A stretch of 64,000 nt of DNA, from positions 442 through 64,441 of the forward strand of contig CAMAXN010000004.1 in the NCBI GenBank assembly GCA_945862245.1, written 5' to 3'. Each line of letters starts with the position of its first letter. The first letter of the stretch is position 1. This stretch comes from Prosthecobacter debontii. GTDB lineage: Bacteria; Verrucomicrobiota; Verrucomicrobiia; Verrucomicrobiales; Akkermansiaceae. A program made the translations under genes and the position numbers. This document shows positions 10,330 through 30,835 of this stretch, piece by piece. The notes beneath the pieces were generated by a model, which had not been told where the DNA came from, did not search any database, and worked only from the letters and a program-made list of their open reading frames with translations.

Positions 10330-11157
10330 TCACTTCGTGGATTCCAGTGCCTTAACTGGCAGGGCGTGCTGATAGAGGGCGGCGATGAGTTCGGTGGAAC
10401 AGGGTATGCGAGCTAAGGGTGCTTGGTGGCGGATCGCGGCATCTTTCCAGAGGTTAAAATGGGCGACGTAGGCCTCGCGGTAGCGGCGGAGGGTGGCAGG
10501 TTCGATACGGTGGGGGTGGAGGCTATTCAACTCGGCGTCGATGAAGTCGTAGTTTCCTGCCCATTCAGGATTCGACTCGGCGTTGTTGAAGTGAGCGAAT
10601 AGGATAGGCGTGCCCTGCTTCTGACCGAGGGCGCGAAGGATGGGGTTGGGATCGGCGGAAAAAAGTAGGTCGGAGAGTAGCACGCGGAGGGCGTGGGAGC
10701 GCAGTGGAATGCGTTGTATTTCCGGCGGTAAGGAAGGATTCGCGGGAGCGAGTGCAGCGACATCCGTGAGCCAGCGTTTTGTCTTGAGTGTGAGTGGATC
10801 GATGGCGAGATATTTATCGCCGGAAATCGCATAGATGCGGACGGAGGCTCCGGCGGCAAGTGAGGAGTTTGTTAGGAAATCCAGTAATTCCTCCGTCCTG
10901 CTTGCTTTTTCTAGGGAGAAAAACATAGAGGACGAGGCGTCGAGGATGAGATCAACAACAGGACGGATCTCCTCTCGAAAGAGCTTCATGGAATACTGCC
11001 CAGTGCGGGCGTAGGCTTGCCAGTTGATATGGCGCGGATCGTCCCCCGGCGAGTAAGCTCGGTGATCCTGGAAGTCCATAGATGCCCCAGTGCCGGAGCC
11101 CGTGAATTCACCGGCGGCACCGCGCCAGGCACGGGAACGGAAAGGGAGCCTTAACAT
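10330..11157 (-). CDS. DUF58 domain protein (MoxR-system-associated family). No MoxR or VWA partner is present in the window.
   Basis: 275 aa. Has the hallmark FQDHRAYSPGDDPRHINW. Confidence 0.75.
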   Translation of the reverse strand: MLRLPFRSRAWRGAAGEFTGSGTGASMDFQDHRAYSPGDDPRHINWQAYARTGQYSMKLFREEIRPVVDLILDASSSMFFSLEKASRTEELLDFLTNSSLAAGASVRIYAISGDKYLAIDPLTLKTKRWLTDVAALAPANPSLPPEIQRIPLRSHALRVLLSDLLFSADPNPILRALGQKQGTPILFAHFNNAESNPEWAGNYDFIDAELNSLHPHRIEPATLRRYREAYVAHFNLWKDAAIRHQAPLARIPCSTELIAALYQHALPVKALESTK

Positions 11158-18161: not shown

Positions 18162-20858
18162 TCAGCAGGTTCTAGCGAAGGCTTCCACGAGCGGGGAGTT
18201 CTGGGCGAGAAGGGCGAAGTTGTCGTATTTTACTTTATCGGCGGGTGGCCAGAAGGCGCGTTCTGATAGGCTGGTGGTGATCCAGTCCAAGCAGGCCTTG
18301 GCAGATTCCAGGTCGGTTTCGGAGAACCCGACCCAGGCGTTTAGCTTCACATCGTCGCGGGTTTTTCCGAGGTGGATGTAGGCGGGAACGGGCGTTTCCT
18401 CGGTGCGAAGGCTGCGGGCGAGGGCATAGAGAGGAAGCTGGAGGTTATCCCAAAAATGAGAGGTGGTTTTACCTTTGGCATCGGTGCAATGTTGAAACAT
18501 TGGCCCGCAATCGGGAAAATGCGTTGGAACTTTGGTCTTGGCGACGATTTTACGGCGGTGCGAGGCCTCGACGCTATCCGCCTTACCGGTCTTGTAGTCG
18601 ATCACGCGTAGCTGCCCGGTGTCGCGGTGGCGGTCGATGCGGTCGATCTTGCCGACGATGTCGAACGCGCCGGAACGGATGGTGAACTTGCTCTCGATCT
18701 CGATGATCTCCCAGCCCTCCGCCGCGGACTCCGCCTGTACGGCGGCAAACCATTCGAGCCGCTGGCGGATGGCGTGGATCTGGATGCGGATCGCCAGTGG
18801 AGGGTTTTTCCCGAATTCCCGGAGTATCACCTCATCGAGTGTGGCGGAAAGTGATGTCGCGATTTTTTCGGGGTGGGTCAGGTGGTTTTTCTCGGGATCA
18901 CTGCCCCATGTCTCGACGACGAGGTGGGTGATGGATCCGAAATCCCGGGCGTTCATTTCCCGGCGATCCGGCTCCGGCACGCTCATGCCGACGAGGTGCT
19001 TGAGGTAGAAGCGGAAGGGGCAGGCGAGGAAATCGCGCAGGGCTGTGACCCTGATGCGCTCCGGCAGTTCGACGGCGGGCGTCTGCCATTTCCAATCGCG
19101 CGTCCAGATGAGATCCGCTTCGGGTGGATCGATCTCGCGGAAGAGGTTCTCGACGGTGGTGACGAGGTTTTCGCGCGGCACGCGGAGCAAAAGGCGGGAG
19201 GGGAGGAGGGTTTCGCCGCCCGGGCCGTTCTTTCCGCAGATCAGGTGGGCGGAGCCGGCTTCGCGTCGCATCATGAGCATAGCGTGGAGGAGGTAGGCGT
19301 CGCGGGCGTGGCGGTCGGTCTCGGCGGTGAGCTTGAGGGCGCGGCGGATGCTATCCGAAAGCCATGTATCTTTATGGGGCTGGGAAGGGACAAATGTGTC
19401 ATTCATACCGCAGATAACCAGGTGGGCACCGGGCTCGAACAGCAGCTCCAGCCAGCCTTGGACATCGATCACGCGCTCGGCGGACGGCTCGGCGGTGGGT
19501 GCAGGGAGCCACGAGAGCAGGGTCTGGAGCCAGAAGCCGTGGCTGCGGTTGGTCTGCGGGAAAAGCGGCGCGGCCTCAGTGAGGAAATCGGCGATGCGGG
19601 CGGCGAGCGGGCTTTCCGATTTCGGGTCGAGCACGTGGAGGTGGGAGGTGATCGCTTCGGGGAAATTTTCCGAGAGAAAGGAACGCCGCAGGCCGAGCAG
19701 GGCGGCGATGGAGGCGCGTAGGGCGGGGTCGGCGAGTTCGAGCATCGCTTCCGGGTCGATGGCGGCGTGGTTGTTGCGTAGCTTGTTGAGGGCGGCGAGT
19801 TTCTGGGCGCGGTTTCCGGAAATGAGGTGGGCGGAATCGGGCAGGGAGAGCAGGGCCGCGAGTTGGCGGGAGGTGGGCTTTGCGAGCCAATCCTTCCATG
19901 CTGTGAGCCAGCGGACGAGGGACGGCATCGGCTGCTTGGCGGCGGGATGAAAGGCGGGCCAGCCGTTTTCCGAAAACGCGCGGGCGACCACGGCTCCGCT
20001 GCGCTCGTCCGGGCAGCCGAGCGCTATCTCTGTGGAGGGTGAGCCGGTTGCCGAGACGGCGGCGAGCGCAAGGGCGGCCTGCCCTGCCGGATCAGCGGCG
20101 ATATCGACGACGGTGTGCGGCGGCAGTTCGCGTGTTGCCCACGTTTCCAGCGGCAGACCGAGCGGCGAGAAAAGCTCCGCCTCCGATTCCGGTGCGGCGA
20201 TGTATAAAATCACTTTTCCTCCGTACGCCATGAGCGCCTCCTCTAGGCACTTCGGCATCTCAGTGATGCCTGCGAGAATGATGTTACGAAATCCCGCGGG
20301 TAGTGCGAAGCGCTCCCGCAGCGCGGTGGTGCGGGACGCGTAGCCCCATGCGGAAAGCTGCCGTTCGGCCAGCGTTTCCAGCCGTGCTAGGTCCTCCCAT
20401 CGCTTCGCCTCGGGTGTGGAGGCAAGGAACTTTGAAGCGGAAAAAAGGTTGTGATTGTGCTCCTGCAAGGTTGCGCGCAGGGCCGTGATTTCCGCCGCCA
20501 GCGACACCGCCCAATCGGGATTATCGTCGCCGCTGTTGGGAGGCACGGGAAAAAGGTCCGCGTATGTATTCCAACCCCCGTCAGGGATCGAGGCCAGAGC
20601 TTCCATCCACGCGATTTTCTCGATCCATGGTGGTGCGACGGATGTGTCTTCGATGTGCAGGAGCGCGCCCGGCGTAGTGAAAGTAGGCGCGAGTATGGCC
20701 ATTGCATCCGCAGCAAGGTGCTCACGCAAAATGCGCCCGCTCTGCGCAGTTGGGACGATGACAAGCGATTCCGCTAAGCACGCGCGGTCAATCAGTAATT
20801 GTCTGACCAAGAGAGGCAGCAACGGCGCGTCGTATCCGAGGAATATCCTTTCGGGCAT
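18162..20858 (-). CDS. AddB-like PD-(D/E)XK nuclease family protein (alpha-type AddB with no Walker A)
   Basis: 898 aa. Nuclease motif GKIDRIDRH..LRVIDYKTGK, an upstream CPFRFYLKHL, and C-terminal Cys residues. No UvrD/AddA gene is adjacent. Confidence 0.7.
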   Translation of the reverse strand: MPERIFLGYDAPLLPLLVRQLLIDRACLAESLVIVPTAQSGRILREHLAADAMAILAPTFTTPGALLHIEDTSVAPPWIEKIAWMEALASIPDGGWNTYADLFPVPPNSGDDNPDWAVSLAAEITALRATLQEHNHNLFSASKFLASTPEAKRWEDLARLETLAERQLSAWGYASRTTALRERFALPAGFRNIILAGITEMPKCLEEALMAYGGKVILYIAAPESEAELFSPLGLPLETWATRELPPHTVVDIAADPAGQAALALAAVSATGSPSTEIALGCPDERSGAVVARAFSENGWPAFHPAAKQPMPSLVRWLTAWKDWLAKPTSRQLAALLSLPDSAHLISGNRAQKLAALNKLRNNHAAIDPEAMLELADPALRASIAALLGLRRSFLSENFPEAITSHLHVLDPKSESPLAARIADFLTEAAPLFPQTNRSHGFWLQTLLSWLPAPTAEPSAERVIDVQGWLELLFEPGAHLVICGMNDTFVPSQPHKDTWLSDSIRRALKLTAETDRHARDAYLLHAMLMMRREAGSAHLICGKNGPGGETLLPSRLLLRVPRENLVTTVENLFREIDPPEADLIWTRDWKWQTPAVELPERIRVTALRDFLACPFRFYLKHLVGMSVPEPDRREMNARDFGSITHLVVETWGSDPEKNHLTHPEKIATSLSATLDEVILREFGKNPPLAIRIQIHAIRQRLEWFAAVQAESAAEGWEIIEIESKFTIRSGAFDIVGKIDRIDRHRDTGQLRVIDYKTGKADSVEASHRRKIVAKTKVPTHFPDCGPMFQHCTDAKGKTTSHFWDNLQLPLYALARSLRTEETPVPAYIHLGKTRDDVKLNAWVGFSETDLESAKACLDWITTSLSERAFWPPADKVKYDNFALLAQNSPLVEAFARTC

Positions 20859-21164: not shown

Positions 21165-22154
21165 ATGAGCCTCCGCAAGCAGTTGAATGATGTTTTACCC
21201 GGTCTGTTACCGAATAATCCTGCGGATGCCATCAAGGGCACGGAGCTGATCCGTTTGGCGCGTCGCAACCTGACAGGGATCTATTCGGATGCATCGCTGA
21301 GGTATCATTTCTCAATCATGTCCTGCGACCCCACTTCGGTGATTGCCAAGGTCGAGAAAGGCCAGGGCTATTACCGCCGCAGCGAGCCGCTGCCCGCCCT
21401 TTCGGGTGCACAGGAGCTTTTGGCATGGACGCAAGGAAGGCTGGAGGATTTGAACGGCAACGAAACAACTATGGACAACGCGATGCTGCGTATCCGTAAA
21501 TTCCGTGCGGTAGTCACCCGCTACTACGAGATCAACGGCCGTTTTCCTTTTGCCTTCCGCGACCCTTTCGCAGTATCCTCGCCTCTGGTTAACCTCTGGA
21601 AATATCCCGATCTGGTTCTGGTGGATTGGGAAACTGGCGGCGCGCCAGATGAGGAGATGTCGCTGGATGAATCGATGCTAGCCCTTAAGCAAAGGCTCGG
21701 TATTGCGCCATTCCGTCTGCACTCAGCGCGGCTGCGACTCCTGCCTTCTCTCACGACATATCGCGAGGATTTTTTCCAAACCCTTTCTGTCTCGATGTGG
21801 GCGCAGGGTGGCGAGTTGATCTACGCCGGACCGATCGAGGATGAGGCCTTAGCGGATGGCTTGCGGAAACTTAGCACGGCCTATGGGGTAGGAGTGATTT
21901 CGTTTGGACTCACCGCTGAAGTGCTTGATGAATTGCCTCGTCCGGCCCAGATCCTCAACGCGCATCCGAAGGAGACGGAAGCGATCATGTCGAAGCTCGA
22001 TATCCTCCGCATAGCGCCGGTGCAATCCCGTCCGCATCTCGATTGGACAGCTCTCGGATCGATGCGCACGGAATACGAAGAGGCGGATAAGTTGATGCGC
22101 TGGCTGACTAATTGTATCGATGCCCGTAGGGCGGAACCGTTCAAGGACGAGTGA
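21165..22154 (+). CDS. Hypothetical protein. N-terminus resembles a winged-helix (Mrr_N/HARE-HTH-like) module.
   Basis: 329-aa ORF with coding-like composition. N-terminus GTELIRLA..LRYHFSIMS..VIAKVEKGQGYYRR. The rest could not be assigned. Confidence 0.55.
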   Translation: MSLRKQLNDVLPGLLPNNPADAIKGTELIRLARRNLTGIYSDASLRYHFSIMSCDPTSVIAKVEKGQGYYRRSEPLPALSGAQELLAWTQGRLEDLNGNETTMDNAMLRIRKFRAVVTRYYEINGRFPFAFRDPFAVSSPLVNLWKYPDLVLVDWETGGAPDEEMSLDESMLALKQRLGIAPFRLHSARLRLLPSLTTYREDFFQTLSVSMWAQGGELIYAGPIEDEALADGLRKLSTAYGVGVISFGLTAEVLDELPRPAQILNAHPKETEAIMSKLDILRIAPVQSRPHLDWTALGSMRTEYEEADKLMRWLTNCIDARRAEPFKDE

Positions 22155-22361
22155 GAATTTCTCCTCAGACAAATAGGATCAGAGGGTGCGAATTGTCGTT
22201 TGCCGCTGGAGGCTAACTTTTTTGGAGATCATAGTGATGTAGGCGGCATGTAAAAGGCTTTGTAAATTCGTCTCTAATAGCGAGAAAATTGCTGGAGTTG
22301 TCGCGTATCTGCGTTATCTATTCTCAACGTACTTATTGGCATTGAGATACCAAGCTAATCT

Positions 22362-24998
22362 ATGTCTAGAAAAACATCCGCCCGTAGTAACGCGATTCCA
22401 GATAGCCTGCGCAAGCAGCTTGAAGATTTTCGTGTTCAACTCTGGCGGCGTAAGATGACGGAAGCTGCGGCAGCTGGGGTTATTGGCCTACTGGTGTCAT
22501 TCCTTCTGATCTACGGTCTCGACCGTGTGTGGCAAACGCCCGGCTGGGCGCGGTTACTCATCCTGCTCGGTGGCGTTTCGCTGTTCGGCGGCTTCGCCCC
22601 TTACTGGCTACACCGCTGGGTCTGGGGTCACCGCCGCGAGGAGCAAATCGCAAGGCTCATTGCGAAGCGCTACCCTGGGCTTGGTGACAGGTTGCTCGGC
22701 GTGATCGAACTGCAAGGCCAGCAAGAGGCGGGCGATTCGCTTTCGCCGAGGCTACGCGCTGCAGCGATGGAGGTGGTCGCTGCGGAGGCCGGGAAACGCA
22801 AGCTCGACGACGCGTTGCCCGTTCCTAAGCATCGCAAATGGGCGCTAGCCGCTTTAGTACTGTTGGTAGTGGCGTCGTGTGCTTTTATAACGACCCCCAA
22901 GGCCGGACTTAACGCGCTAGAGCGCTGGCTGAATCCGTTTTCCGATGTTCAAAGATACACATTTACCCAGCTTGAAAAACCGCAACAATATCTCGCCGTA
23001 GCCTACGGTGAAGCATTTGATATCATTTTAAAACTGGCAAAAAACTCAGAGCGGAGACCGTCCAATGCGCTTGGCCAATACGGTCTTCAACCGGTCATTA
23101 GCGCGAAGCTTGAGGGCGACCTCTACAAGTTCCGCTTCCCAGGCCAACAGGAAAAGGGTTCTGTTGTTTTCCGGATCGGCGATCTGCGGCACTCGTTGAT
23201 TGTGGAGCCGTTGCAGCGCCCCGGTGTGATGAGCACAAGAGCTTTCGTGACATACCCTAACTACATGAGCCTGCCAGATCGGACGGTGGAACTCAGCACG
23301 GGTGAATTAAGCCTCGTTGAGGGCAGCGGGCTTCTTTTTGAAATGGATATGAGTCGTGAGGTGTGCTCAGGCAGCTACGGACCAAGCAAGGCTTCCGGTC
23401 AAGCCACGGAGCTGCCCTTAGCCGATTTAGAACCATTCGAGGGTGTGCTGGAAATTTCTGGGCAGATGGTCAAAACGGCTGAAATTGCTGTTGGTAGAGT
23501 TCCCTTCGAGCTACCTTTTTCGTGGGTTGATGAGTTCGGTCTCACCGGCGGATTAGACTTTCGGCTGCGCGTTGATGCGGTGAAGGATGCCCCGCCCGTG
23601 GCCTACACCCAAGGCGTGGAAAGGCAGCAAGCGATATTGCCTGAAGAGGCCATCGATTTCGAAATTCTTGGAGAGGATGATTTTGGTCTCAAAGAGGTAG
23701 GCATCGAGTGGGTTAGCATCGTGTCTGCGCCAAGTGAGATACCCGAAGTCAAAGGCGAGCTAATACTTGCAAAAGGTGCGCCCGAGGAGCGCCGTATCAT
23801 CAAACCTGTGGTGTTTTCTCCGGCTGCGTTCGGAATCAAACCTCAGAGATTGGAGCTTCGGGCATTTTCTGAGGACCTCTATCCCGGACGTGGCCGCGTT
23901 TATTCCGAATCGATCCTGCTTTCCGTCCTGACTCGCGAAGAGCACCAGCAGTTGCTGAAATCGCAATTCGATCGTGCGATCAGCGAACTGGAAGATGCTG
24001 TCCGCAATGAAATAAATAATCTCGATGAGAACCAACGCCTCCAGAAGCTCAGCGCGGAGGAGATGAAGGAGGAGGAAAACCGCAGGCGCCTAGACACCCA
24101 GGAGCAGGAGGAAGGCGAGGCCGCCCAGCGGATGGAGGAGATCAATGAGAAAATGGAGGACGTGGTGAAAGGCGCAACACGCAACGGCGAGATCGACAAA
24201 GAGACGATGAAGAAAATGGCAGAAGCGCTGAAGTCGATTCAGGAACTAGCCGACAAGGATGTGCCGGAAGTCCACGAGCAATTGCAGGAGGCACAGGAGC
24301 AATCGAATACCGACGAGAAAACCGAAGAGAATATCAAGGAGGCTGTCGAGAAGCAGAAGGCAGTCGTCGAGAAAATGAAGGAAGCTGTGGAGCAGGCCAA
24401 CGATGCGAACAAGCGTTTCGAAGCCAGCACGTTCGTTAGTCGTCTGAAAAAAGCCGCTGCCGAACAGAACGGAATCGCCGGGAATTTGATCGAAAGCTTG
24501 ACTAAGAAACTGGCAGGCTTGCGCACCGAAGAGCTTGATCCAAGTGACCAGATAAAATTATCCGATACTATCAGTGTGCAGATAGTTACGGCGGATGATG
24601 TACGATGGATTCAGGAAGATCTCGGGCACTATCATGCCCGCACCGGAGACGCAGCGTTCAAGGCGATTATGGAGCAGATGCGGGAAGCGAAAATCGATGC
24701 TGGACTGGAAGGTGTAAGGGCTAAACTCGATTTGCATCATTCATTTGAGGCCACTGAAGATGCTAAGAAATGGGCGGTAAAACTTAAGGAATGGGCGACT
24801 ATTCTTGGCGGAGAATTGGATGAAGCAAGCGGAGGTGGCGGCGGAGAAGGCGGCGGCGGCAGCCCAGAGGACGAGGATTTCGAATTTATGCTGCGGGTAA
24901 TGAAAATGATCCAGCAGCAGCAGGATCTCCGTGCCCGAACACGCGTACTGGAACAACTCAAACGGGATTCCAAAAACACTAAACCAACGAACAAATGA
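22362..24998 (+). CDS. Membrane-anchored protein with a long acidic coiled-coil (DUF4175-like from memory)
   Basis: 878 aa. TM helices near residues 35-55, 62-82 and 160-180. Contains IAKRYPGLGDRLLGVIEL, DAPPVAY..EILGEDDFGLKEVGIEW, about 250 aa of E/K-rich heptad-like sequence, and a G5EG4 tract. Confidence 0.7.
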   Translation: MSRKTSARSNAIPDSLRKQLEDFRVQLWRRKMTEAAAAGVIGLLVSFLLIYGLDRVWQTPGWARLLILLGGVSLFGGFAPYWLHRWVWGHRREEQIARLIAKRYPGLGDRLLGVIELQGQQEAGDSLSPRLRAAAMEVVAAEAGKRKLDDALPVPKHRKWALAALVLLVVASCAFITTPKAGLNALERWLNPFSDVQRYTFTQLEKPQQYLAVAYGEAFDIILKLAKNSERRPSNALGQYGLQPVISAKLEGDLYKFRFPGQQEKGSVVFRIGDLRHSLIVEPLQRPGVMSTRAFVTYPNYMSLPDRTVELSTGELSLVEGSGLLFEMDMSREVCSGSYGPSKASGQATELPLADLEPFEGVLEISGQMVKTAEIAVGRVPFELPFSWVDEFGLTGGLDFRLRVDAVKDAPPVAYTQGVERQQAILPEEAIDFEILGEDDFGLKEVGIEWVSIVSAPSEIPEVKGELILAKGAPEERRIIKPVVFSPAAFGIKPQRLELRAFSEDLYPGRGRVYSESILLSVLTREEHQQLLKSQFDRAISELEDAVRNEINNLDENQRLQKLSAEEMKEEENRRRLDTQEQEEGEAAQRMEEINEKMEDVVKGATRNGEIDKETMKKMAEALKSIQELADKDVPEVHEQLQEAQEQSNTDEKTEENIKEAVEKQKAVVEKMKEAVEQANDANKRFEASTFVSRLKKAAAEQNGIAGNLIESLTKKLAGLRTEELDPSDQIKLSDTISVQIVTADDVRWIQEDLGHYHARTGDAAFKAIMEQMREAKIDAGLEGVRAKLDLHHSFEATEDAKKWAVKLKEWATILGGELDEASGGGGGEGGGGSPEDEDFEFMLRVMKMIQQQQDLRARTRVLEQLKRDSKNTKPTNK

Positions 24999-25636
24999 AA
25001 GCGACCATATACGCTTCACTTTTTCTAATCACCTTCTTACTGCCTTTGTTTTCGGAAGAGGAGCTTAAGGATGCAGCCAAGATGTTGGAGCGCCATGCTG
25101 AAGGTTCCGAGCTACTTGCGGGCGAACAGGATGAGCTCTCCGCCGATGTACAACAGCTTGTGATCGAGCAAACGGTACAACAGGTGATCGACCTACTGAC
25201 TGAAGTAGAGGGGATTATGGACGAGACGACGGATTATCTGGCCGAGACGGAAACCGGAGGCACGACCATCGCAGCACAAACGGAAATCATCGAGAAGATC
25301 TACGAGGCAGCGAAAGAGAAACAAAAGAAGGGCCAAGGCGAAAAATATGAATCTGGCAGTGCGATGTTGGATATGATGGAGCGGATGATGGGTAAGAAGG
25401 AAGGAGAGGGCAAAGGAAAGGGTAAAGGTGAGGGTGAGGGTCAAGGTGATCAGGGTGGAAACGGTCAAACCGGCGACTCTGATTCTGCCAACGAAGTAGA
25501 CGGTGGCAATGTAAGTGGAAAAAATGAGGAGCGAACCGTACCCAAGGCGGCCGGAAATGCCGGCAAGACCCTACCAAGCGAGTTCCAGCAAGTCCTCGAC
25601 GCCTATAACCGAGGACTGGAGGGAAAATCCGAATAG
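24995..25636 (+). CDS. Secreted acidic protein with a G/E/K low-complexity tract
   Basis: 213 aa. Signal peptide MKATIYASLFLITFLLPLFS, then GEGKGKGKGEGEGQGDQGGNGQ. ATGA overlap with the upstream gene. Confidence 0.65.
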   Translation: MKATIYASLFLITFLLPLFSEEELKDAAKMLERHAEGSELLAGEQDELSADVQQLVIEQTVQQVIDLLTEVEGIMDETTDYLAETETGGTTIAAQTEIIEKIYEAAKEKQKKGQGEKYESGSAMLDMMERMMGKKEGEGKGKGKGEGEGQGDQGGNGQTGDSDSANEVDGGNVSGKNEERTVPKAAGNAGKTLPSEFQQVLDAYNRGLEGKSE

Positions 25637-25637
25637 A

Positions 25638-26624
25638 ATGAGAAGGATCGTCTTCATTTTCTTTTGTGCAGCTTCACTTTCCGCTTCACACGGTCAGGGC
25701 TTGCCCAGCCGAGGCGATGACCGAGTTCCAGCGCAGGTCGATCTGATCTATGAGCGCGGCCTGCATTACCTTGCTGAGAAGCAGAACTCGGATGGCTACT
25801 GGGAGGATGGTTTGGGCAGCGAGCCGGGTGTGGTCGGTCTGTGCATCGCTGCATTCCTTGCCCATGGCGAAGATCCGAATAACGGGCCTTACGCGAAAGT
25901 AATACGCAAGGGGATCGACTACATCATTTCAAAACAAAGCACGGTGAACGGTTATATCGGTTCGAGCATGTATAACCATGCCTTCGCCACCAAAGCCCTA
26001 GCGGAAGCCTATGGGGTCATAGAGCACCCGAAGGTGGAGCAAGCTCTGGAGCAGGCGGTGGAACTGATCTTGAGTTCACAAAAGCGGAATCGCTACGGCG
26101 CGTGGCGTTACACTCCGGATAGCCGTGATGCGGACACCACTGTCACCGGTTGCCAGGTGGTAAGTCTTTTCGCCGCACGCAATGCAGGCATGCCGGTGCC
26201 GGACGAAGCGATCAAGAAAGCCCTCGCCTACCTCGCGAGTTGCCGCGGCAGCGAAGGCTCTTACGGCTACACCTCCACAGCGGGAGGTAAGCCTACACTG
26301 ACCGCAATTGGTTCACTTTGTCTTTCATTGGCAAAGGAAAAAGAATCTAAGGGCTATGCCGCGAGCCTCGCCTATCTCAAAAAGAATATGGATTACCGCG
26401 ACAGATATTATCCCTACTACTACGAATACTACATGTCTCAAGCGCTGTTCCATGCCGATACCGAAACATGGGAGGAATGGAACAGCCGCAATATACGTTA
26501 CCTCGCCACGATCCAGTCTCCAGACGGATATTTTCCCGGAAACCAAGGGCAGGCTTTTAGCACAGCGGGGGCGCTTTTGTCGCTCGCCCTGAACTACCGA
26601 TATCTGCCAATCTACGAGAAATGA
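25638..26624 (+). CDS. Secreted prenyltransferase/squalene-oxidase-repeat (alpha/alpha-toroid) protein
   Basis: Starts MRRIVFIFFCAASLSAS (signal peptide). QW-like repeats SDGYWEDG, YGAWRYT, EGSYGYT, PDGYFPG. The track start at 25515 would overlap the previous gene. Confidence 0.7.
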   Translation: MRRIVFIFFCAASLSASHGQGLPSRGDDRVPAQVDLIYERGLHYLAEKQNSDGYWEDGLGSEPGVVGLCIAAFLAHGEDPNNGPYAKVIRKGIDYIISKQSTVNGYIGSSMYNHAFATKALAEAYGVIEHPKVEQALEQAVELILSSQKRNRYGAWRYTPDSRDADTTVTGCQVVSLFAARNAGMPVPDEAIKKALAYLASCRGSEGSYGYTSTAGGKPTLTAIGSLCLSLAKEKESKGYAASLAYLKKNMDYRDRYYPYYYEYYMSQALFHADTETWEEWNSRNIRYLATIQSPDGYFPGNQGQAFSTAGALLSLALNYRYLPIYEK

Positions 26625-28120
26625 GAAATATCACTCTCACCTTCTTCCTTGCGAGTACACCGCTTCTCCACGGTGAGGAATTGCGCCAGGACCTGCTTAG
26701 CTTCACCAACGGCGACCAACTTCACGGCAAGCTTTCTGGAATCGCCGCCGGGCCATCGATCCAATGGAAGCGGCACGATGTGGGCGAAGATGTAACATTC
26801 AAGTCCTCCGAGTTGCGGCGCATCGTCCTGCGCGGTGGAAGGCCCGTCAAATCAACGCAGAGCTATTCACATATCGGAACTTCCAACGGTGACCGTATCC
26901 CTGGAATCGTCTTGGAAATGGATGAAAAGCGGCTTTTGATCGATACTAAGTTCGGAGGGATGATCAATATTCCCCGTGATCAGGTTGGATTGATTGCGCC
27001 GAACCCGCTTGGTGGTAAAATGCTTTACTATGGACCGTATGATCCGGAGGAGTGGCTGTTGTTTAACGACAAACATCCCGAAGGCATCTCCGCCCTAAAA
27101 GGAGATAAAAAATCCAAGATGCTTCTCTGGAAACACTCGGGAAGTGCTTGGTATTGGCAGAACAAGAAAATAGGCACTGCGCTGGCGAAAAAAGCGGGTA
27201 TGCCAGATCGTGCGATACTGCGCTTCGACATCGCATGGAAAAGCAGGCTTGCATGTGCGATCGCTTTTCACGCCAACTTTAAGCAAGCCCAGCCATTGAA
27301 GGTTAATGAGGATGCAGATGAGCAACATAAAAATTTGGTGGGTGGGGTGATCAATTCTCTGTCCGTGCCATCTATCTTCGGAGAGTGCTACGTGCTCCAG
27401 CTTTATTCTAACTACGTAATGTTGCTCCGGAGCTCCTTTGATGAGGAAGGAAGGCCCAAACTGGATCGATTGCAGACGCCAAACAGCTCCTTACAGCTTG
27501 GTGATACTGGCAATGCCACATTTGAGATCCGCTGCAACCGCCCGTCTGGAGAAATCTCGCTTTTTATCAACGATGAGTTCGTCGTACAGTGGAGCGAGGT
27601 GGGTATTGGCTTGGATGGAGCCGAGGGCTATGCTGGAAAAGGCGACGGCTTCGGCTTCCTCGTGCAGGCCGAAGATTCCCCCGTTCGCATTTCAGAGATG
27701 GTCATTGCAAATTGGAACGGCATGCCGGATGCCGCTCGCAGCCTGCAGGTAGATGACGCTGACGTCGTTCTGCTCATTAACGGAACTGACCGCTTCTCTG
27801 GAAATGTCATTGGCCTCAATCAAGGTAAACTCAAATTGGAGGGACGATATGGTGATTTCGAATTTCCTATAGAAGAAATCGCGGAAGTGCGATTTGCGAA
27901 ATCCCGAATCGCCGAGGCTCCGAACGCCCCCTTGGATGCCATCAAGACGCGTCTCCATCCATTGGGGAGAATAACTGGTCGTCCGATATCAGGGGATGCG
28001 GGAATCTTGCGTATGATGAGCGTGGCAGCAGGTGAAATCGATATCAACTTAGATTACGCGGTCATGCTGGAGTTCCGCGAATCCGAGAGCTTCATGGATG
28101 ATTGGGATGAGGAATTTTAA
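26621..28120 (+). CDS. Secreted paralogue 1: two NGD-repeats, a LamG/DUF1080-like core, then two more repeats
   Basis: 499 aa with a signal peptide. Repeats LSFTNGDQLHGKLSGI and IGTSNGDRIPGIVLEM; core ..ILRFDIAWKS..GEISLFINDEFVVQW..VRISEMVIANWNG; C-terminal LLINGTDRFSGNVIGL. Confidence 0.7.
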   Translation: MRNITLTFFLASTPLLHGEELRQDLLSFTNGDQLHGKLSGIAAGPSIQWKRHDVGEDVTFKSSELRRIVLRGGRPVKSTQSYSHIGTSNGDRIPGIVLEMDEKRLLIDTKFGGMINIPRDQVGLIAPNPLGGKMLYYGPYDPEEWLLFNDKHPEGISALKGDKKSKMLLWKHSGSAWYWQNKKIGTALAKKAGMPDRAILRFDIAWKSRLACAIAFHANFKQAQPLKVNEDADEQHKNLVGGVINSLSVPSIFGECYVLQLYSNYVMLLRSSFDEEGRPKLDRLQTPNSSLQLGDTGNATFEIRCNRPSGEISLFINDEFVVQWSEVGIGLDGAEGYAGKGDGFGFLVQAEDSPVRISEMVIANWNGMPDAARSLQVDDADVVLLINGTDRFSGNVIGLNQGKLKLEGRYGDFEFPIEEIAEVRFAKSRIAEAPNAPLDAIKTRLHPLGRITGRPISGDAGILRMMSVAAGEIDINLDYAVMLEFRESESFMDDWDEEF

Positions 28121-29456
28121 TTTCCAACGCCTTTCGGCACTGATCCTCGGTATGACGGCTTGCTCCGCCATAGCTGCCGATGTTTTGCTAAAAGGCGATG
28201 CAAAGCTTTCCGGCGACATTCTGGGTATTGCCGATGACGGTACGATCACACTTCAAACACCCATTTCGGAAAAAGCACTCATACTTAGTGCCGATCAGGT
28301 GGAGAAGGTTTTATTCGGTAATGCGGGTAAGGATATTGAATTGCCAATGCAAAGAATTGAACTTTCAAATGGCGACATCCTACCGGTGAAGGTCACATCC
28401 ATGGAAGGAGACATTTTTAATGTGGAGTCCCCAATTCTCGGACCACTGGCTATCCCACGTGATAAGATCACCACACTGCAGTTGGGAATCGTTCCGAAAA
28501 AAGTCATCTATGCTAATCCAAAGGGGATCGATGACTGGTCTCAGAACGATCCTGTTCTGCAGGCTTGGTCTTATAGTGATGGTCGTTTTCTTGCAAGAGG
28601 GCCGGGGGTGCTGACACGAGACATGAAACTTACGGAAAAATTTATCCTGAAGTTTACATTCGGCTGGCAAAGCCAGCCCAATTTCCAGTTTAGCTTCGCC
28701 CATGCACCATGGTCAGGTGATACGGGACAGGACAGGTACCTCGCCGAGTTCAACGGTTTTGGATTTACTGTTTTCCGAGAAAATATGAATGGTATTCGTA
28801 GCCCTTTCATCCAGTTGGCACATAGCCCGGAGCATATCGCAAAGCGGCAGATCGATGTGGAAATCCGTGTTGATCGCACCAGAGGTTTGCTTGAAATCCG
28901 CATTGATGGCATACTCAAAGGGCGCTTTTCGGACACACATGAGCCCATACCGGCTGGAACCTGTGTTTCGCTTACTAGTATCTCAAATAAGACTAAGGAC
29001 AGTGGGCAATATCTTCGTGATTTCACGATTCTAGATTGGGATGACCGCGGTGACAGGCACCGGAGCGAGGAGAGGGGCGACGGCAAAGCTGATTCGTTGA
29101 TCGGGCGCTACGGAGAGAGGTTCGGTGGTAAATTGGAAAGCGTCCGTGCCGATGGTGTATCAACGGTATATGTTTTCAAAAGCGATTTCCAGAAAGAGCC
29201 GCTGAAACTTCCTGAAGAGGAGGTTTCCACCTTGTTCTTTGGCGGGCAGGACAAACCTTCCAAATCGTCATCCACAAGTGGACTAATCCTTGGGTTGCGC
29301 GGGCAGGGTTTCATGCGGGTTGTCTCGTGTGTGATGGATGCGGATTCGGTTATAGTCGATCACATCTTGCTAGGTTCCTTGAAGTTCAGTCGCGATGGTA
29401 TATCATCTTTGAAACAGATATATGTGCCGAAGTTAAAGCCTCAAACTAAACGATGA
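28098..29456 (+). CDS. Secreted paralogue 2 (same architecture)
   Basis: 452 aa. Signal peptide LSALILGMTACSAIA. IELSNGDILPVKVTSMEG; core FILKFTFGWQS..GLLEIRIDGILKGRF..LRDFTILDWDD. The start may be 28107. Confidence 0.7.
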   Translation: MIGMRNFNFQRLSALILGMTACSAIAADVLLKGDAKLSGDILGIADDGTITLQTPISEKALILSADQVEKVLFGNAGKDIELPMQRIELSNGDILPVKVTSMEGDIFNVESPILGPLAIPRDKITTLQLGIVPKKVIYANPKGIDDWSQNDPVLQAWSYSDGRFLARGPGVLTRDMKLTEKFILKFTFGWQSQPNFQFSFAHAPWSGDTGQDRYLAEFNGFGFTVFRENMNGIRSPFIQLAHSPEHIAKRQIDVEIRVDRTRGLLEIRIDGILKGRFSDTHEPIPAGTCVSLTSISNKTKDSGQYLRDFTILDWDDRGDRHRSEERGDGKADSLIGRYGERFGGKLESVRADGVSTVYVFKSDFQKEPLKLPEEEVSTLFFGGQDKPSKSSSTSGLILGLRGQGFMRVVSCVMDADSVIVDHILLGSLKFSRDGISSLKQIYVPKLKPQTKR

Positions 29457-30835
29457 AACATGCCATTATACATCTTTTAATGACGATTAGCTGTTTTGCC
29501 CAGCAGGATCTATCTGTCTTGCGATTTTCCAACGGTGACCAACTGACTGGCGATCTAATGGCTTTAACTGGAAAAAAGATTTCTTGGAAATCTCTATTAC
29601 TCAAGGAGCCTGCCGAGTTCAATCTTAAATACTTGATGGATCTGGAATTTCCTGTCGGTGCACCTCCCGCAGACCTACCAGTGGCCGCGCATGAGGCCAT
29701 GATTGGGATGACAAATGGCGATACGTTACGGGGACAACTCGCGGGCATAACGGAGTCAGAAATCCGGCTGGCGACTTGGTATGCAAACGAACTGGTGCTG
29801 AAGCGAGTGAACGTGAAATCAGCTAAGATTTCCAACATCGCTGATATCTATTATCGTGGTCCAAACAGTATAGAGGAATGGGCACATAGCGACGGTGCGG
29901 ACGCCTGGAGTTTTCGTGGAGGCGCCCTCCACTCCAAGTCTCCCGGTGGTATCGCTCGTGAGATCAATTTACCTGATCAATGCGTTATTTCTTTTGAGGC
30001 AGCATGGCGCGGTGCATTCAGCCCCAAGATTATTTTCTATTCCAAGAACATCTCCTCGCCTTCCCAGCCAGATTCCGGTTTTGAGATGAGTTTTCAAGGC
30101 AACTCGGTTCATGTTAAAAAAACTGGTGCCAATAATAATTGGATAGGGTATTCCTCTAACGCTGGAGTACTCAGAGAAAAGGAAAAAGCGCGCATCGAAA
30201 TCAAGGTCAGCTTGGCTAGCGGTAAAATCGCGCTATTTGTGAATGATCAGTTCATTGACGTATGGCAAGCTGACGCGGTGGATCGAGATACCATCGGCAA
30301 AGGCTTTCACATCGTATCCAAGGATAGTTTGCCTCTGCGTATTTCAGATATTGAGGTTTCGGGCTGGGATGGCTACCTTGAGAACGTCCCCAACCCCAGG
30401 GCGCAATTCCAGGGCGCGTTCGACGGTGGTTTTAATCTAGATGGCCCTGCCTTCAGTGAGGAGACCATACCCGAGGGACGTATGCAGCTCCGCAATGGAG
30501 ATACGATCGAGGGCGAGGTGATCAGCATTAAAGGTGAGGAAATCACACTCAAGACCCCATTTGCCGAAGTGAAATTTCCAGTCGGGCGGCTGAAAAATCT
30601 CTCCTTGTCCAAAGATTCAATGGAGGAGGCAAAGCTCGAGAACGGCGATGTACGCGCTACCCTAGCGGACGGGTCGTGTCTGGTCTTCCGCCTCGACGCG
30701 GTAGAAAAAGACGCCATCATCGGCTACAGCCAGAACTTCGGCACCGCAAGGTTTAGCATGAACGCGTTCAAGCGTATCGAATTCAATCTCTATCCGAGAT
30801 ATGGCGAAGCCATCAGGCCCATTGTAGAATGGTAG
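29453..30835 (+). CDS. Secreted paralogue 3 (same architecture)
   Basis: 460 aa. LRFSNGDQLTGDLMAL, IGMTNGDTLRGQLAGI; core CVISFEAAWRG..GKIALFVNDQFIDVW..LRISDIEVSGWDG; LRNGDTIEGEVISIKG. Confidence 0.7.
   Translation: MKHAIIHLLMTISCFAQQDLSVLRFSNGDQLTGDLMALTGKKISWKSLLLKEPAEFNLKYLMDLEFPVGAPPADLPVAAHEAMIGMTNGDTLRGQLAGITESEIRLATWYANELVLKRVNVKSAKISNIADIYYRGPNSIEEWAHSDGADAWSFRGGALHSKSPGGIAREINLPDQCVISFEAAWRGAFSPKIIFYSKNISSPSQPDSGFEMSFQGNSVHVKKTGANNNWIGYSSNAGVLREKEKARIEIKVSLASGKIALFVNDQFIDVWQADAVDRDTIGKGFHIVSKDSLPLRISDIEVSGWDGYLENVPNPRAQFQGAFDGGFNLDGPAFSEETIPEGRMQLRNGDTIEGEVISIKGEEITLKTPFAEVKFPVGRLKNLSLSKDSMEEAKLENGDVRATLADGSCLVFRLDAVEKDAIIGYSQNFGTARFSMNAFKRIEFNLYPRYGEAIRPIVEW

Follow-up and report, generated by a model that had tools for sequence, protein, structure and literature searches.

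The closest described relatives of this locus are operons built around a MoxR ATPase, a DUF58 protein and BatA. In Rhizobium leguminosarum, RL3499–RL3502 (cmdA–D) encode an AAA_3/bpMoxR ATPase (a MoxR of the MRP subfamily), a DUF58 protein, a BatA protein with the double-transmembrane (TM) TIGR02226 domain and a large membrane protein of GATase1-like type; according to the summary in PMC5700661, mutants in these genes have defects in envelope integrity and cell morphology. A MoxR/DUF58/BatA core is likewise found in the aerotolerance operon BatI (BatA–E) of Bacteroides fragilis and in spirochaete homologues (PMC5700661, PMC3557215). There, as in the PVC operons considered below, the core is followed by membrane or periplasmic proteins of obscure mechanism. 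The phenotypes of Bat/Cmd operons vary by organism and, according to PMC3557215, none was found in Leptospira for oxidative stress.

The cluster studied here comprises six ORFs, P1–P6, all on the + strand at 22362–30835 of the window (the whole 64-kb stretch of DNA analysed) and with the ends originally predicted. Assignments of signal peptides and topology rest on visual inspection and hydropathy. The features are:

21165..22154, + strand: upstream cytoplasmic protein of 329 aa with no family match, loosely linked and not part of the core
22155..22361, + strand: intergenic region of 207 nt before P1, presumed promoter of the operon
22362..24998, + strand: P1, inner-membrane protein of 878 aa (ORF, hydropathy, AF2)
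22614..22835, + strand: P1 loop between TM2 and TM3, RYPGLGDRLLGVIELQ...SPRLRAAAMEVVAAE, predicted cytoplasmic and highly conserved
24995..25636, + strand: P2, predicted exported acidic helical protein of 213 aa (ORF, tblastn)
25638..26624, + strand: P3, predicted exported single-domain α/α-toroid of 328 aa (ORF, Pfam, PDB)
26621..28120, + strand: P4, predicted exported paralogue of P6, 499 aa (BLASTP)
28098..29456, + strand: P5, predicted exported and possibly lipid-anchored protein of 452 aa, the most divergent of the three paralogues (BLASTP)
29453..30835, + strand: P6, predicted exported all-β protein of 460 aa (AF2, Foldseek, hhalign)

Reading the sequence bore out all five predicted junctions: ATGA overlaps join P1 to P2 (24995–24998), P3 to P4 (26621–26624) and P5 to P6 (29453–29456), TAG-A-ATG at 25634–25640 leaves a 1-nt gap between P2 and P3, and P4 and P5 overlap by 23 nt (28098–28120). 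The P3 frame also reaches upstream to a GTG at 25515. A scan for σ70-type promoters returned no site in the 207 nt before P1, and the whole region contains fewer sites than shuffled sequences.

The order P1–P6 is the same in 51 of 57 species-level Akkermansiaceae loci with sufficient downstream DNA. Four of the six exceptions are low-coverage P2 matches over the low-complexity tract and two lack P4, a gene absent from three related loci in all (L026, L028 and L045; L028 was too short to enter the count). The geometry of the overlaps is preserved as well, with the −4 nt overlap kept at P1/P2 in 56/73 loci, at P3/P4 in 60/63 and at P5/P6 in 52/60, and the −23 nt overlap at P4/P5 in 48/60; the flanking housekeeping genes are not conserved. 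The arrangement is well beyond chance and, kept in more than 50 species, it upholds the original prediction of a tightly coupled operon of membrane and exported proteins. The more divergent contigs L085 and L086, presumably from other Verrucomicrobia, likewise carry the module split and detached, with two or three paralogues.

The P1–P6 proteins are uncharacterised, and in the Pfam search only P3 matched curated families, P1, P2 and P4–P6 matching none. P1 has hydrophobic segments at aa 32–57, 65–83 and 158–183, which we divide into a TM hairpin (aa 33–84), a loop (aa 85–158) and TM3 (aa 159–180). Beyond TM3, the AF2 model (pLDDT 88.5, pTM 0.66) has a β-rich middle of three Ig-like domains (~aa 205–522) and a helical C-terminal half (aa 525–872), and the Gly tract GGGGGEGGGG occupies aa 824–833. 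Hydropathy, model and sequence thus agree with the three TM helices, β-rich middle and Gly tract first noticed, and the model bears out a scaffold anchored by its TM helices and including a long helical part; the helical region itself is modelled as several helices, so that the coiled coil originally proposed is not demonstrably a single long one. By the positive-inside rule, the N-terminus would be cytoplasmic and the Ig-like domains periplasmic. In an alignment of 72 sequences (25–82% identity), the loop between TM2 and TM3 has three invariant columns (S128, L131 and A134) and six near-invariant ones (G108, D109, L112, G113, E116 and L117), and may be where P1 makes contact with the cytoplasmic MoxR/DUF58 or BatA partners. 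The P1 family is large (553 clusters at 50% identity, E≤1e-30), P1 itself had no sequence match in Pfam, NCBIfam or PDB, and Foldseek of the model retrieved generic tandem Ig/MG-domain proteins and nothing else.

DUF4175/TIGR02302 proteins are long alphaproteobacterial proteins that have two or three TM helices at the N-terminus and low-complexity stretches rich in Gly/Gln, and that in some cases are encoded as two ORFs. They resemble P1 in length, N-terminal TM layout, Gly tract and the occasional two-gene split, but this is a resemblance only: neither P1 (E≤0.1) nor 21 diverse members of its family (E≤1) matched PF13779 or TIGR02302, and membership is unsupported.

P2 has the hydrophobic N-terminus and G/K/E low-complexity linker originally described, followed by a conserved C-terminal motif, TLPSEFQQVLDAYNRGLE. 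By tblastn it maps within the 3'-terminal part of the long P1-like genes of L082 (E=1.7e-9), L088 (E=7.6e-11) and L083 (E=2.7e-4), and no hydrophobic segment was found in the C-terminal third of these fused proteins. Judged from these alignments, P2 is the counterpart of the C-terminal end of a single fused P1-like protein present elsewhere in PVC; since it aligns to the C-terminus of longer proteins that lack an extra TM segment there, P1 and P2 are the products of a gene fission.

The relationship to the operons described above emerges from distant P1 homologues (25–34% identity, E down to 1e-170), which form the fifth gene of MoxR(AAA_3)–DUF58–BatA–GATase1-like operons. At 29–34% identity, the P1 homologue lies immediately 3' of all four genes in L083 and L084 (Planctomycetota/other PVC), follows a partial DUF58 gene, BatA and the GATase1-like gene in L082, follows the latter two in L087 and lies 5.5 kb 3' of the GATase1-like gene in L088, while in L029, an Akkermansiaceae MAG, MoxR–DUF58–BatA(TIGR02226)–GATase1-like divergently abuts P1. 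These are the four genes of the Rhizobium set, and in L083 and L084 they precede homologues of P1+P2 and P3. In L083, L084 and L087, a gene whose product shares 42–43% identity with P3 (E 1e-74 to 1e-80) comes after the gene for the fused P1+P2 homologue, immediately so in L083 and separated by a single PDZ-protein gene in L084 and L087; in L088 the very next gene matches P3 at 49% identity. By hhalign and tblastn, the gene that follows the P3 homologue encodes at its N-terminus two P4/P6-like modules joined to a thioredoxin of TlpA/ResA type, and in L083 the P6 family profile aligns to residues 480–932 of this 1106-aa protein (hhalign: probability 98.2%, E=5.6e-14). Since counterparts of P1, P2, P3 and P4/P6 follow the MoxR–DUF58–BatA–GATase1-like genes in this way, the window cluster is probably the detached distal half of a MoxR operon, an extracytoplasmic distal module belonging to a MoxR/BatA envelope system that spans PVC.

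This relationship places P1–P6 in an operon type present across Planctomycetes and Verrucomicrobia, and the earlier view of a self-contained cluster unrelated to any known system is not supported, given the P1–P3 and P6 homologues that continue such operons. The accompanying observation that the cluster contains no ATPase holds for the cluster itself, and no MoxR, BatA or GATase1-like gene was found in the 64 kb of the window, but it does not hold for the homologous operons elsewhere in PVC, which begin with a MoxR ATPase. The products fall loosely within a described pathway, the Bat/Cmd-type MoxR operon being known genetically and not mechanistically. Compared with cmdA–D, the window cluster holds none of the four genes and P1–P6 are extra downstream components, for which no counterpart in the Rhizobium cmd system was described in the literature searched. 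The accessory proteins also differ from those of Bat operons, which are VWA (BatB), TPR (BatC), BatD and SH3/TPR (BatE) proteins rather than Ig-like/helical P1+P2, toroid P3 and ConA-like P4–P6; in the Pfam search P1–P6 matched no Bat family. By analogy, the planctomycete thioredoxin fusion may recall the redox idea attached to Bat.

The distal products have recognisable folds. P3 is the best-conserved product of the cluster (70–91% identity in Akkermansiaceae, 42–57% across phyla) and matches Pfam SQHop_cyclase_C above the gathering score (7.6e-9, 35.5 bits, cutoff 26.1), Prenyltrans (1.3e-5) and the PDB squalene-hopene cyclase 2sqc (2.3e-5), as anticipated from its QW-type repeats, which it has in common with the toroids of squalene-hopene cyclases and prenyltransferase β-subunits. 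P4–P6 are paralogues, as first proposed (BLASTP: P4 vs P6, E=2e-22 over 439 aa; P5 vs P6, E=3e-9; P4 vs P5, E=2e-6), and P4 found no family in profile searches. In the AF2 model of P6 (pLDDT 82.6, pTM 0.74), a ConA-like jelly-roll (aa 132–304) lies at the centre, preceded by two small β-domains of five strands each and followed by two further small β-domains. The central domain superposes on the ConA-like β-sandwiches of CBM66 (4b1m, TMt 0.68), YesU/DUF1961 (1oq1, 0.56), Emp46/47 (0.55) and BoNT HCN with TM-scores of 0.55–0.69, normalised to the target and indicating fold-level matches only (7–15% identity). This lectin-like core agrees with the carbohydrate-binding type of β-sandwich foreseen for these proteins, although the four small flanking domains have no counterpart in those proteins and no sequence family is matched.

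As modelled, the proteins are compatible with a periplasmic scaffold anchored in the membrane together with subunits for binding, and we propose the following scheme. The full operon would run from the MoxR AAA+ ATPase through DUF58, BatA (double-TM/VWA/PA14) and the GATase1-like/MG2 membrane protein to P1+P2, P3 and lectin-like β-sandwich proteins. On this reading, the P1–P6 module has been severed from the ATPase half in the Akkermansiaceae lineage of the window, the P1+P2 gene has been split, with P2 acquiring its own predicted export signal, and the β-sandwich modules are found as three separate paralogous genes, P4–P6. Three helices would hold P1 in the inner membrane with its conserved loop facing the cytoplasm, while the three Ig-like domains, together with a helical stalk that P2 completes, would project into the periplasm, where the stalk would arrange the exported toroid P3 and lectin-like P4–P6. 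These exported proteins may bind an envelope ligand, either a glycan or an isoprenoid lipid. Assembly or remodelling of the complex could fall to a MoxR–DUF58 pair encoded elsewhere, acting by way of BatA, the GATase1-like protein and the P1 loop, and the whole would serve envelope maintenance.

Alternatively, the detached complex could be an autonomous, ATPase-free envelope or periplasmic assembly, a structural scaffold displaying binding proteins. Over 50 species keep its own six-gene operon between unrelated flanking genes, and MoxR-operon genes lie within 10 kb of the cluster in just one of the 39 Akkermansiaceae loci with adequate upstream DNA. Moreover, in Luteolibacter luteus and Haloferula helveola another, divergent P1'/P3' pair occupies the slot after the GATase1-like gene and could serve MoxR, so P1–P6 could be a paralogous system gone independent. 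Against this, P1 resembles the P1 attached to MoxR in Planctomycetota (31% identity, E=5e-125) far more closely than it does the attached P1' of Luteolibacter/Haloferula (24–25%, E 1e-12 to 1e-14), and its best-conserved non-periplasmic part is the predicted cytoplasmic loop, which suggests a cytoplasmic partner. In addition, assembly GCA_014379305.1, with P1–P3 and the first half of P4 on a contig that stops within P4 (L005), retains on another contig (L091) a four-gene MoxR operon ending after the GATase1-like gene, exactly where P1 would come. We consider autonomy unlikely.

That P3 is a true enzyme is improbable. Its conservation and its score against SQHop_cyclase_C could suggest a terpenoid cyclase of class-II-like type, or a prenyl-transferring enzyme, exported to modify an envelope isoprenoid lipid such as a hopanoid, a polyprenol or a squalene-derived lipid, with P1/P2 as membrane scaffold and P4–P6 as accessories. 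P3 does have a conserved DADTT segment following a WRY motif, which we take to resemble the DxDDTA region of squalene-hopene cyclase, but DxDD is incomplete, and the correspondence is uncertain because the Pfam and PDB alignments place the same P3 segment on different parts of the cyclase. Unlike the two-domain enzyme of ~630 aa, P3 is a single 328-aa toroid with a predicted export signal, and it lies in an envelope operon rather than among isoprenoid genes, which were not found linked in any locus examined.

Very improbable is an α2-macroglobulin-like protease trap or quality-control device spread across genes, with MG/Ig domains in P1 and the GATase1-like/MG2 protein and P3 as a TED-like toroid. 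With the β-region of P1, Foldseek picks up complement C3/C4/C5, α2-macroglobulin, CD109 and TEP1 among others, P3 has a weak match to TED_complement (E=0.002), the GATase1-like homologues carry PF01835 MG2, and planctomycete operons also hold HtrA-like Trypsin_2/PDZ, PDZ and TlpA/ResA-like thioredoxin proteins. However, the Ig-like matches are generic (TM-scores no higher than 0.3), the TED_complement match is under threshold, the CxEQ thioester motif was found in neither P3 nor its 77 homologues, and neither a bait region nor an A2M receptor-binding domain was found.

The cluster had also been thought visibly richer in A/T than its flanks, yet its GC content (51.7% vs 54.2% for the window) is not significantly low, being equalled or undercut by 21% of equal-sized windows, and its 3' neighbours have 50–53%. 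A recent horizontal island or polysaccharide-utilisation accessory locus is scarcely credible, despite the slightly low GC of P5 and P6 (48–50%) and the lectin-like cores of P4–P6, given this normal composition, a vertical conservation graded by phylogeny across Akkermansiaceae and further, and no linked glycoside hydrolase, transporter, integrase or tRNA.

The 329-aa protein encoded upstream of P1 had no match in Pfam, NCBIfam or PDB, and its gene was not found beside the L085 and L086 clusters. It adjoins the cluster in 15 of 39 loci and lies within 10 kb in 25 of them, and its product shares 88% identity with the protein encoded ahead of the L001 cluster, whose flanks otherwise differ.

The cluster comprises six open reading frames on the + strand at 22362-30835, exactly as the original prediction had described them:

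Open reading frames of the cluster
22362-24998, + strand: P1, 878 aa, membrane scaffold
24995-25636, + strand: P2, 213 aa, exported acidic helical protein
25638-26624, + strand: P3, 328 aa, exported toroid
26621-28120, + strand: P4, 499 aa, exported β-sandwich paralogue
28098-29456, + strand: P5, 452 aa, exported β-sandwich paralogue
29453-30835, + strand: P6, 460 aa, exported β-sandwich paralogue

As read directly in the sequence, three of the junctions are ATGA overlaps, the stop codon of P2 and the ATG of P3 are separated by 1 nt, and P4 overlaps P5 by 23 nt. A locus scan with one genome per species returned 80 loci, all from Akkermansiaceae, and tblastn with the window proteins placed P1 to P6 in the same order in 51 of the 57 loci whose downstream sequence reaches far enough (four of the six exceptions are partial matches over the low-complexity part of P2, and two lack P4). 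Carriers of the cluster include two cultivated Luteolibacter, L. algae and strain AS25 (L012 and L014). The overlap geometry is also kept, with -4 nt at the P1/P2 (56/73), P3/P4 (60/63) and P5/P6 (52/60) junctions and -23 nt at P4/P5 (48/60). The genes that flank the cluster are housekeeping genes in the window, the next one downstream being a convergent M29 peptidase gene, and conservation of the flanks is absent among the related loci. At the amino-acid level, conservation follows the order P3 > P1 > P2 > P4 ≈ P6 > P5. P4 is missing in three Akkermansiaceae loci (L026, L045 and L028, the last too short to enter the 57-locus count), where P3 is followed directly by P5 and P6, so β-sandwich paralogues vary in number.

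When all six products were searched against Pfam and NCBIfam, P3 alone matched, which leaves P1, P2, P4, P5 and P6 outside every curated family searched. The Akkermansiaceae/Luteolibacter group of Verrucomicrobiota has plentiful P1 homologues, every one annotated as hypothetical and without a Pfam domain. An AlphaFold2 model of P1 built from a 72-sequence alignment (pLDDT 88.5) begins with a transmembrane hairpin, a helical cytoplasmic loop and a third transmembrane helix, and continues with three Ig-like β-domains (~aa 205-522), after which aa 525-872 are helical. By the positive-inside rule, the N-terminus and the loop at aa 85-158, in which several of the family's few invariant columns fall, would be cytoplasmic and the remainder periplasmic. 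Foldseek with this model returned solely generic tandem Ig/MG-domain proteins, the P1 profile found nothing significant among PDB sequences, and Pfam searches of eight and then 21 distant relatives gave nothing consistent. Membership in DUF4175/TIGR02302 is not supported: neither P1 (E<=0.1) nor the eight distant relatives (E<=0.01) nor 21 members of the family (E<=1) matched the profile. Several large protein families without a Pfam or NCBIfam model are defined here, of which the P1 family alone amounts to 553 clusters (50% identity) at E<=1e-30 in a profile search over 1.84 billion representatives; many of its members are 1000-1180 aa long, and those with names come from Planctomycetota (Pirellula, Pirellulaceae) and Verrucomicrobiota.

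In these distant relatives the P1-like gene belongs to a larger operon. Two contigs, L083 and L084, hold a full five-gene series that encodes a MoxR ATPase (AAA_3/bpMoxR), DUF58, BatA, a GATase1-like protein (GATl) and the P1-like protein; a P3-like gene follows, directly in L083 and after one PDZ-protein gene in L084, and the next gene in both encodes a thioredoxin/AhpC-TSA protein of 882-1106 aa. BatA and GATase1-like genes also lie upstream of the P1-like gene in L082 and L087. In L088 the GATase1-like gene is found 5.5 kb upstream, across an insertion; the block that separates it from the fused P1+P2 gene (247-5839, ~5.5 kb, with AAA_14/DUF4143, Nmad3, ERCC4, TPR and DUF433 genes) has the look of a mobile or defence element by which the operon was interrupted.

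The remaining products of the cluster have counterparts in the same series. P2 corresponds to the C-terminal end of the longer P1-like proteins (tblastn E=1.7e-9 and 7.6e-11), which have no hydrophobic segment at this end; P1 and P2 are therefore the products of a gene fission, after which P2 gained a predicted export signal. P3 shares 42-49% identity with the toroid whose gene lies downstream of the fused P1+P2 gene (E 1e-74 to 1e-97). In the 1106-aa thioredoxin protein, residues 480-932 align with the entire P6 family profile (hhalign 98.2%, E=5.6e-14); a further module precedes this segment, and the C-terminus is ResA/DsbE/TlpA-like. In some lineages the lectin-like β-sandwiches thus occur as thioredoxin fusions. 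Given these counterparts of P1+P2, P3 and P4-P6, the six window genes correspond to the distal part of the operon, and we consider it highly probable that the cluster is a detached distal module of the PVC MoxR–DUF58–BatA–GATase1-like operon. By comparison, the VWA, TPR, BatD and SH3 domains of the Bacteroides Bat accessory proteins (BatB-E) were not found in P1-P6 (Pfam, E<=0.1). In planctomycete-type operons, the P1-like gene is additionally surrounded by genes for an HtrA-like protease (Trypsin_2/PDZ) and for proteins with PDZ domains (L084 7434-10004 and 13534-14625; L087 13351-14490), and the last gene is that of the TlpA/ResA-like thioredoxin fusion; these PDZ, HtrA-like and thioredoxin components hint at functions in envelope maintenance, periplasmic quality control or redox chemistry.

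The 64-kb window contains no AAA_3, BatA or GATase1-like gene, on which ground a MoxR half at another place within it was rejected. Its sole DUF58 gene is an orphan (10330-11157, - strand, Pfam 1e-14) between M16 peptidase and anthranilate synthase genes, with no adjoining MoxR ATPase. Among 39 family loci, the MoxR half is linked to the cluster in one, L029, where genes for MoxR, DUF58, a BatA/TIGR02226 protein of 940 aa and a GATase1-like protein of 803 aa adjoin P1 divergently; one further context look-up (P0439), aimed at a second species with this divergent arrangement, returned nothing. The two halves occur together in assembly GCA_014379305.1: one contig (L091) carries the four-gene MoxR–DUF58–BatA–GATl operon followed by housekeeping genes, and on another (L005) lie P1-P3 and half of P4, the contig breaking off inside that gene. 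Two distant contigs, presumably from other Verrucomicrobia, likewise show the split and detached form, with two (L085) or three (L086) β-sandwich paralogues. In Luteolibacter luteus and Haloferula helveola, MoxR–DUF58–BatA–GATl is followed by a divergent P1-like and P3-like toroid pair (L089 12446-17052 and L090 12440-17661; 24-25% and 32% identity, the P1-like protein of L090 being 1386 aa long), so that two or more paralogous P1/P3 pairs exist in the family. The identity of P1 to the MoxR-attached planctomycete protein (31%, E=5e-125) is higher than the 24-25% of this second P1-like protein. A 1997-aa bacterial α2-macroglobulin is encoded nearby in L090, from 21600. The Luteolibacter GATl proteins (homologues of L029 2448-4859; P0436-P0553) have precomputed matches to PF01835 (macroglobulin MG2) and PF05762 (VWA_CoxE), and this fourth protein of the MoxR operon is named 'VWA domain-containing protein' in some sources.

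MoxR–DUF58–BatA operons are found in a great many bacteria, where they influence envelope integrity or stress tolerance; MoxR AAA+ ATPases and their VWA-type partners act as assembly or remodelling chaperones. To our knowledge, nobody knows the targets of these operons. A proposal related to such chaperones has been published (PMC3495828), and in Rhizobium the homologous operon of four genes has an effect on cell morphology and on the integrity of the envelope, as summarised in PMC5700661. This kind of system is already known, and what is new here is its extracytoplasmic extension: in Planctomycetota and Verrucomicrobiota the operon runs on into a conserved set composed of a membrane scaffold with Ig-like and helical parts, a cyclase-like toroid that is exported, and β-sandwiches of the lectin type, an extension of which we found no description in the literature searched.

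The original prediction had read the cluster as an envelope or periplasmic assembly with no ATPase and had related it to no characterised system. The first part stands insofar as no MoxR gene is present in 64 kb; the second is not supported, given the counterparts in the MoxR operon. An autonomous scaffold, for which the rarity of linkage to the MoxR half speaks, is possible but less probable. The extracytoplasmic proteins are the most plausible candidates for clients or effectors of the MoxR ATPase. The value of the cluster lies chiefly in the way that it opens to the clients of MRP-type MoxR ATPases, which have long been looked for, and the separation of the two halves in Akkermansiaceae offers a natural genetic experiment on whether they still depend on each other. 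As a tentative mechanism, proposed with low confidence in its specifics, P1+P2 would form an inner-membrane-anchored periplasmic stalk that organises P3 and P4-P6 as binders of envelope lipid or glycan. MoxR, DUF58, BatA and GATl, encoded apart from the cluster, would assemble or regulate this complex from the cytoplasmic side by way of the P1 loop. More doubtful still is a PVC-specific, periplasm-spanning machine of P1+P2, P3 and P4-P6, assembled or powered from the cytoplasm by MoxR–DUF58–BatA, whose exported toroid might bind or modify an isoprenoid envelope lipid; if true, it would for the first time give the widespread MRP-type MoxR/Bat operons a concrete client and output.

P3 could also be a genuine isoprenoid enzyme. 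It matches SQHop_cyclase_C (7.6e-9, 35.5 bits against a cutoff of 26.1), Prenyltrans (1.3e-5) and, in the PDB, squalene-hopene cyclase (2.3e-5), and Q-x3-G-x-W repeats recur and are conserved in an alignment of 78 sequences, which bears out the predicted α/α toroid with QW repeats that P3 has in common with class II terpenoid cyclases. However, the catalytic DxDD general-acid motif was not found in this alignment (the segment reads DADTT), P3 scores 29-38 bits against the class II cyclase models TIGR01507 and TIGR01787 (cutoffs 323-431), and its 328 aa compare with ~630 aa for the two-domain squalene-hopene cyclase. The MG/TED-like folds would suit a trap of the α2-macroglobulin kind, but TED_complement scores 17.7 bits on P3 against a cutoff of 22, the CxEQ thioester was not found in P3 or 77 homologues, and the MG-like matches of P1 are generic.

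The proposed paralogy of P4-P6 was borne out by pairwise comparison (P4/P6 E=2e-22, P5/P6 E=3e-9, P4/P5 E=2e-6). P6 has no Pfam, NCBIfam or PDB sequence match, and its profile found nothing significant in the PDB. Its AlphaFold2 model (pLDDT 82.6) has a central β-sandwich (aa 132-304), preceded by two small five-stranded β-domains and followed by two small β-domains. Foldseek identified the sandwich as a ConA-like lectin fold, a β-jelly-roll shared with CBM66 modules (TMt 0.66-0.69), with further matches to Emp46/47 and YesU (TMt 0.52-0.56) and to BoNT HCN.

The A/T-richness ascribed to the cluster proved marginal (51.7% GC against 54.2% for the window, with 21% of equal-sized windows as low or lower), and on this composition a recent horizontal island was rejected. 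A σ70 promoter and terminator scan of the region was uninformative, promoter-like sites being fewer than in shuffled sequences. Upstream of P1, at 21165-22154 (+ strand), lies the gene of a cytoplasmic protein of 329 aa that matches nothing in Pfam or NCBIfam and nothing significantly among PDB sequences, and whose 78-92% aa identity exceeds that of every cluster product; its linkage is loose (directly upstream of P1 in 15 of 39 loci, within 10 kb in 25), and it is not found beside the clusters of more distant relatives. Further upstream, a PD-(D/E)XK nuclease-family gene (18162-20858, - strand) has 62.5% GC against 54% for the window and is the source of many spurious antisense open reading frames.
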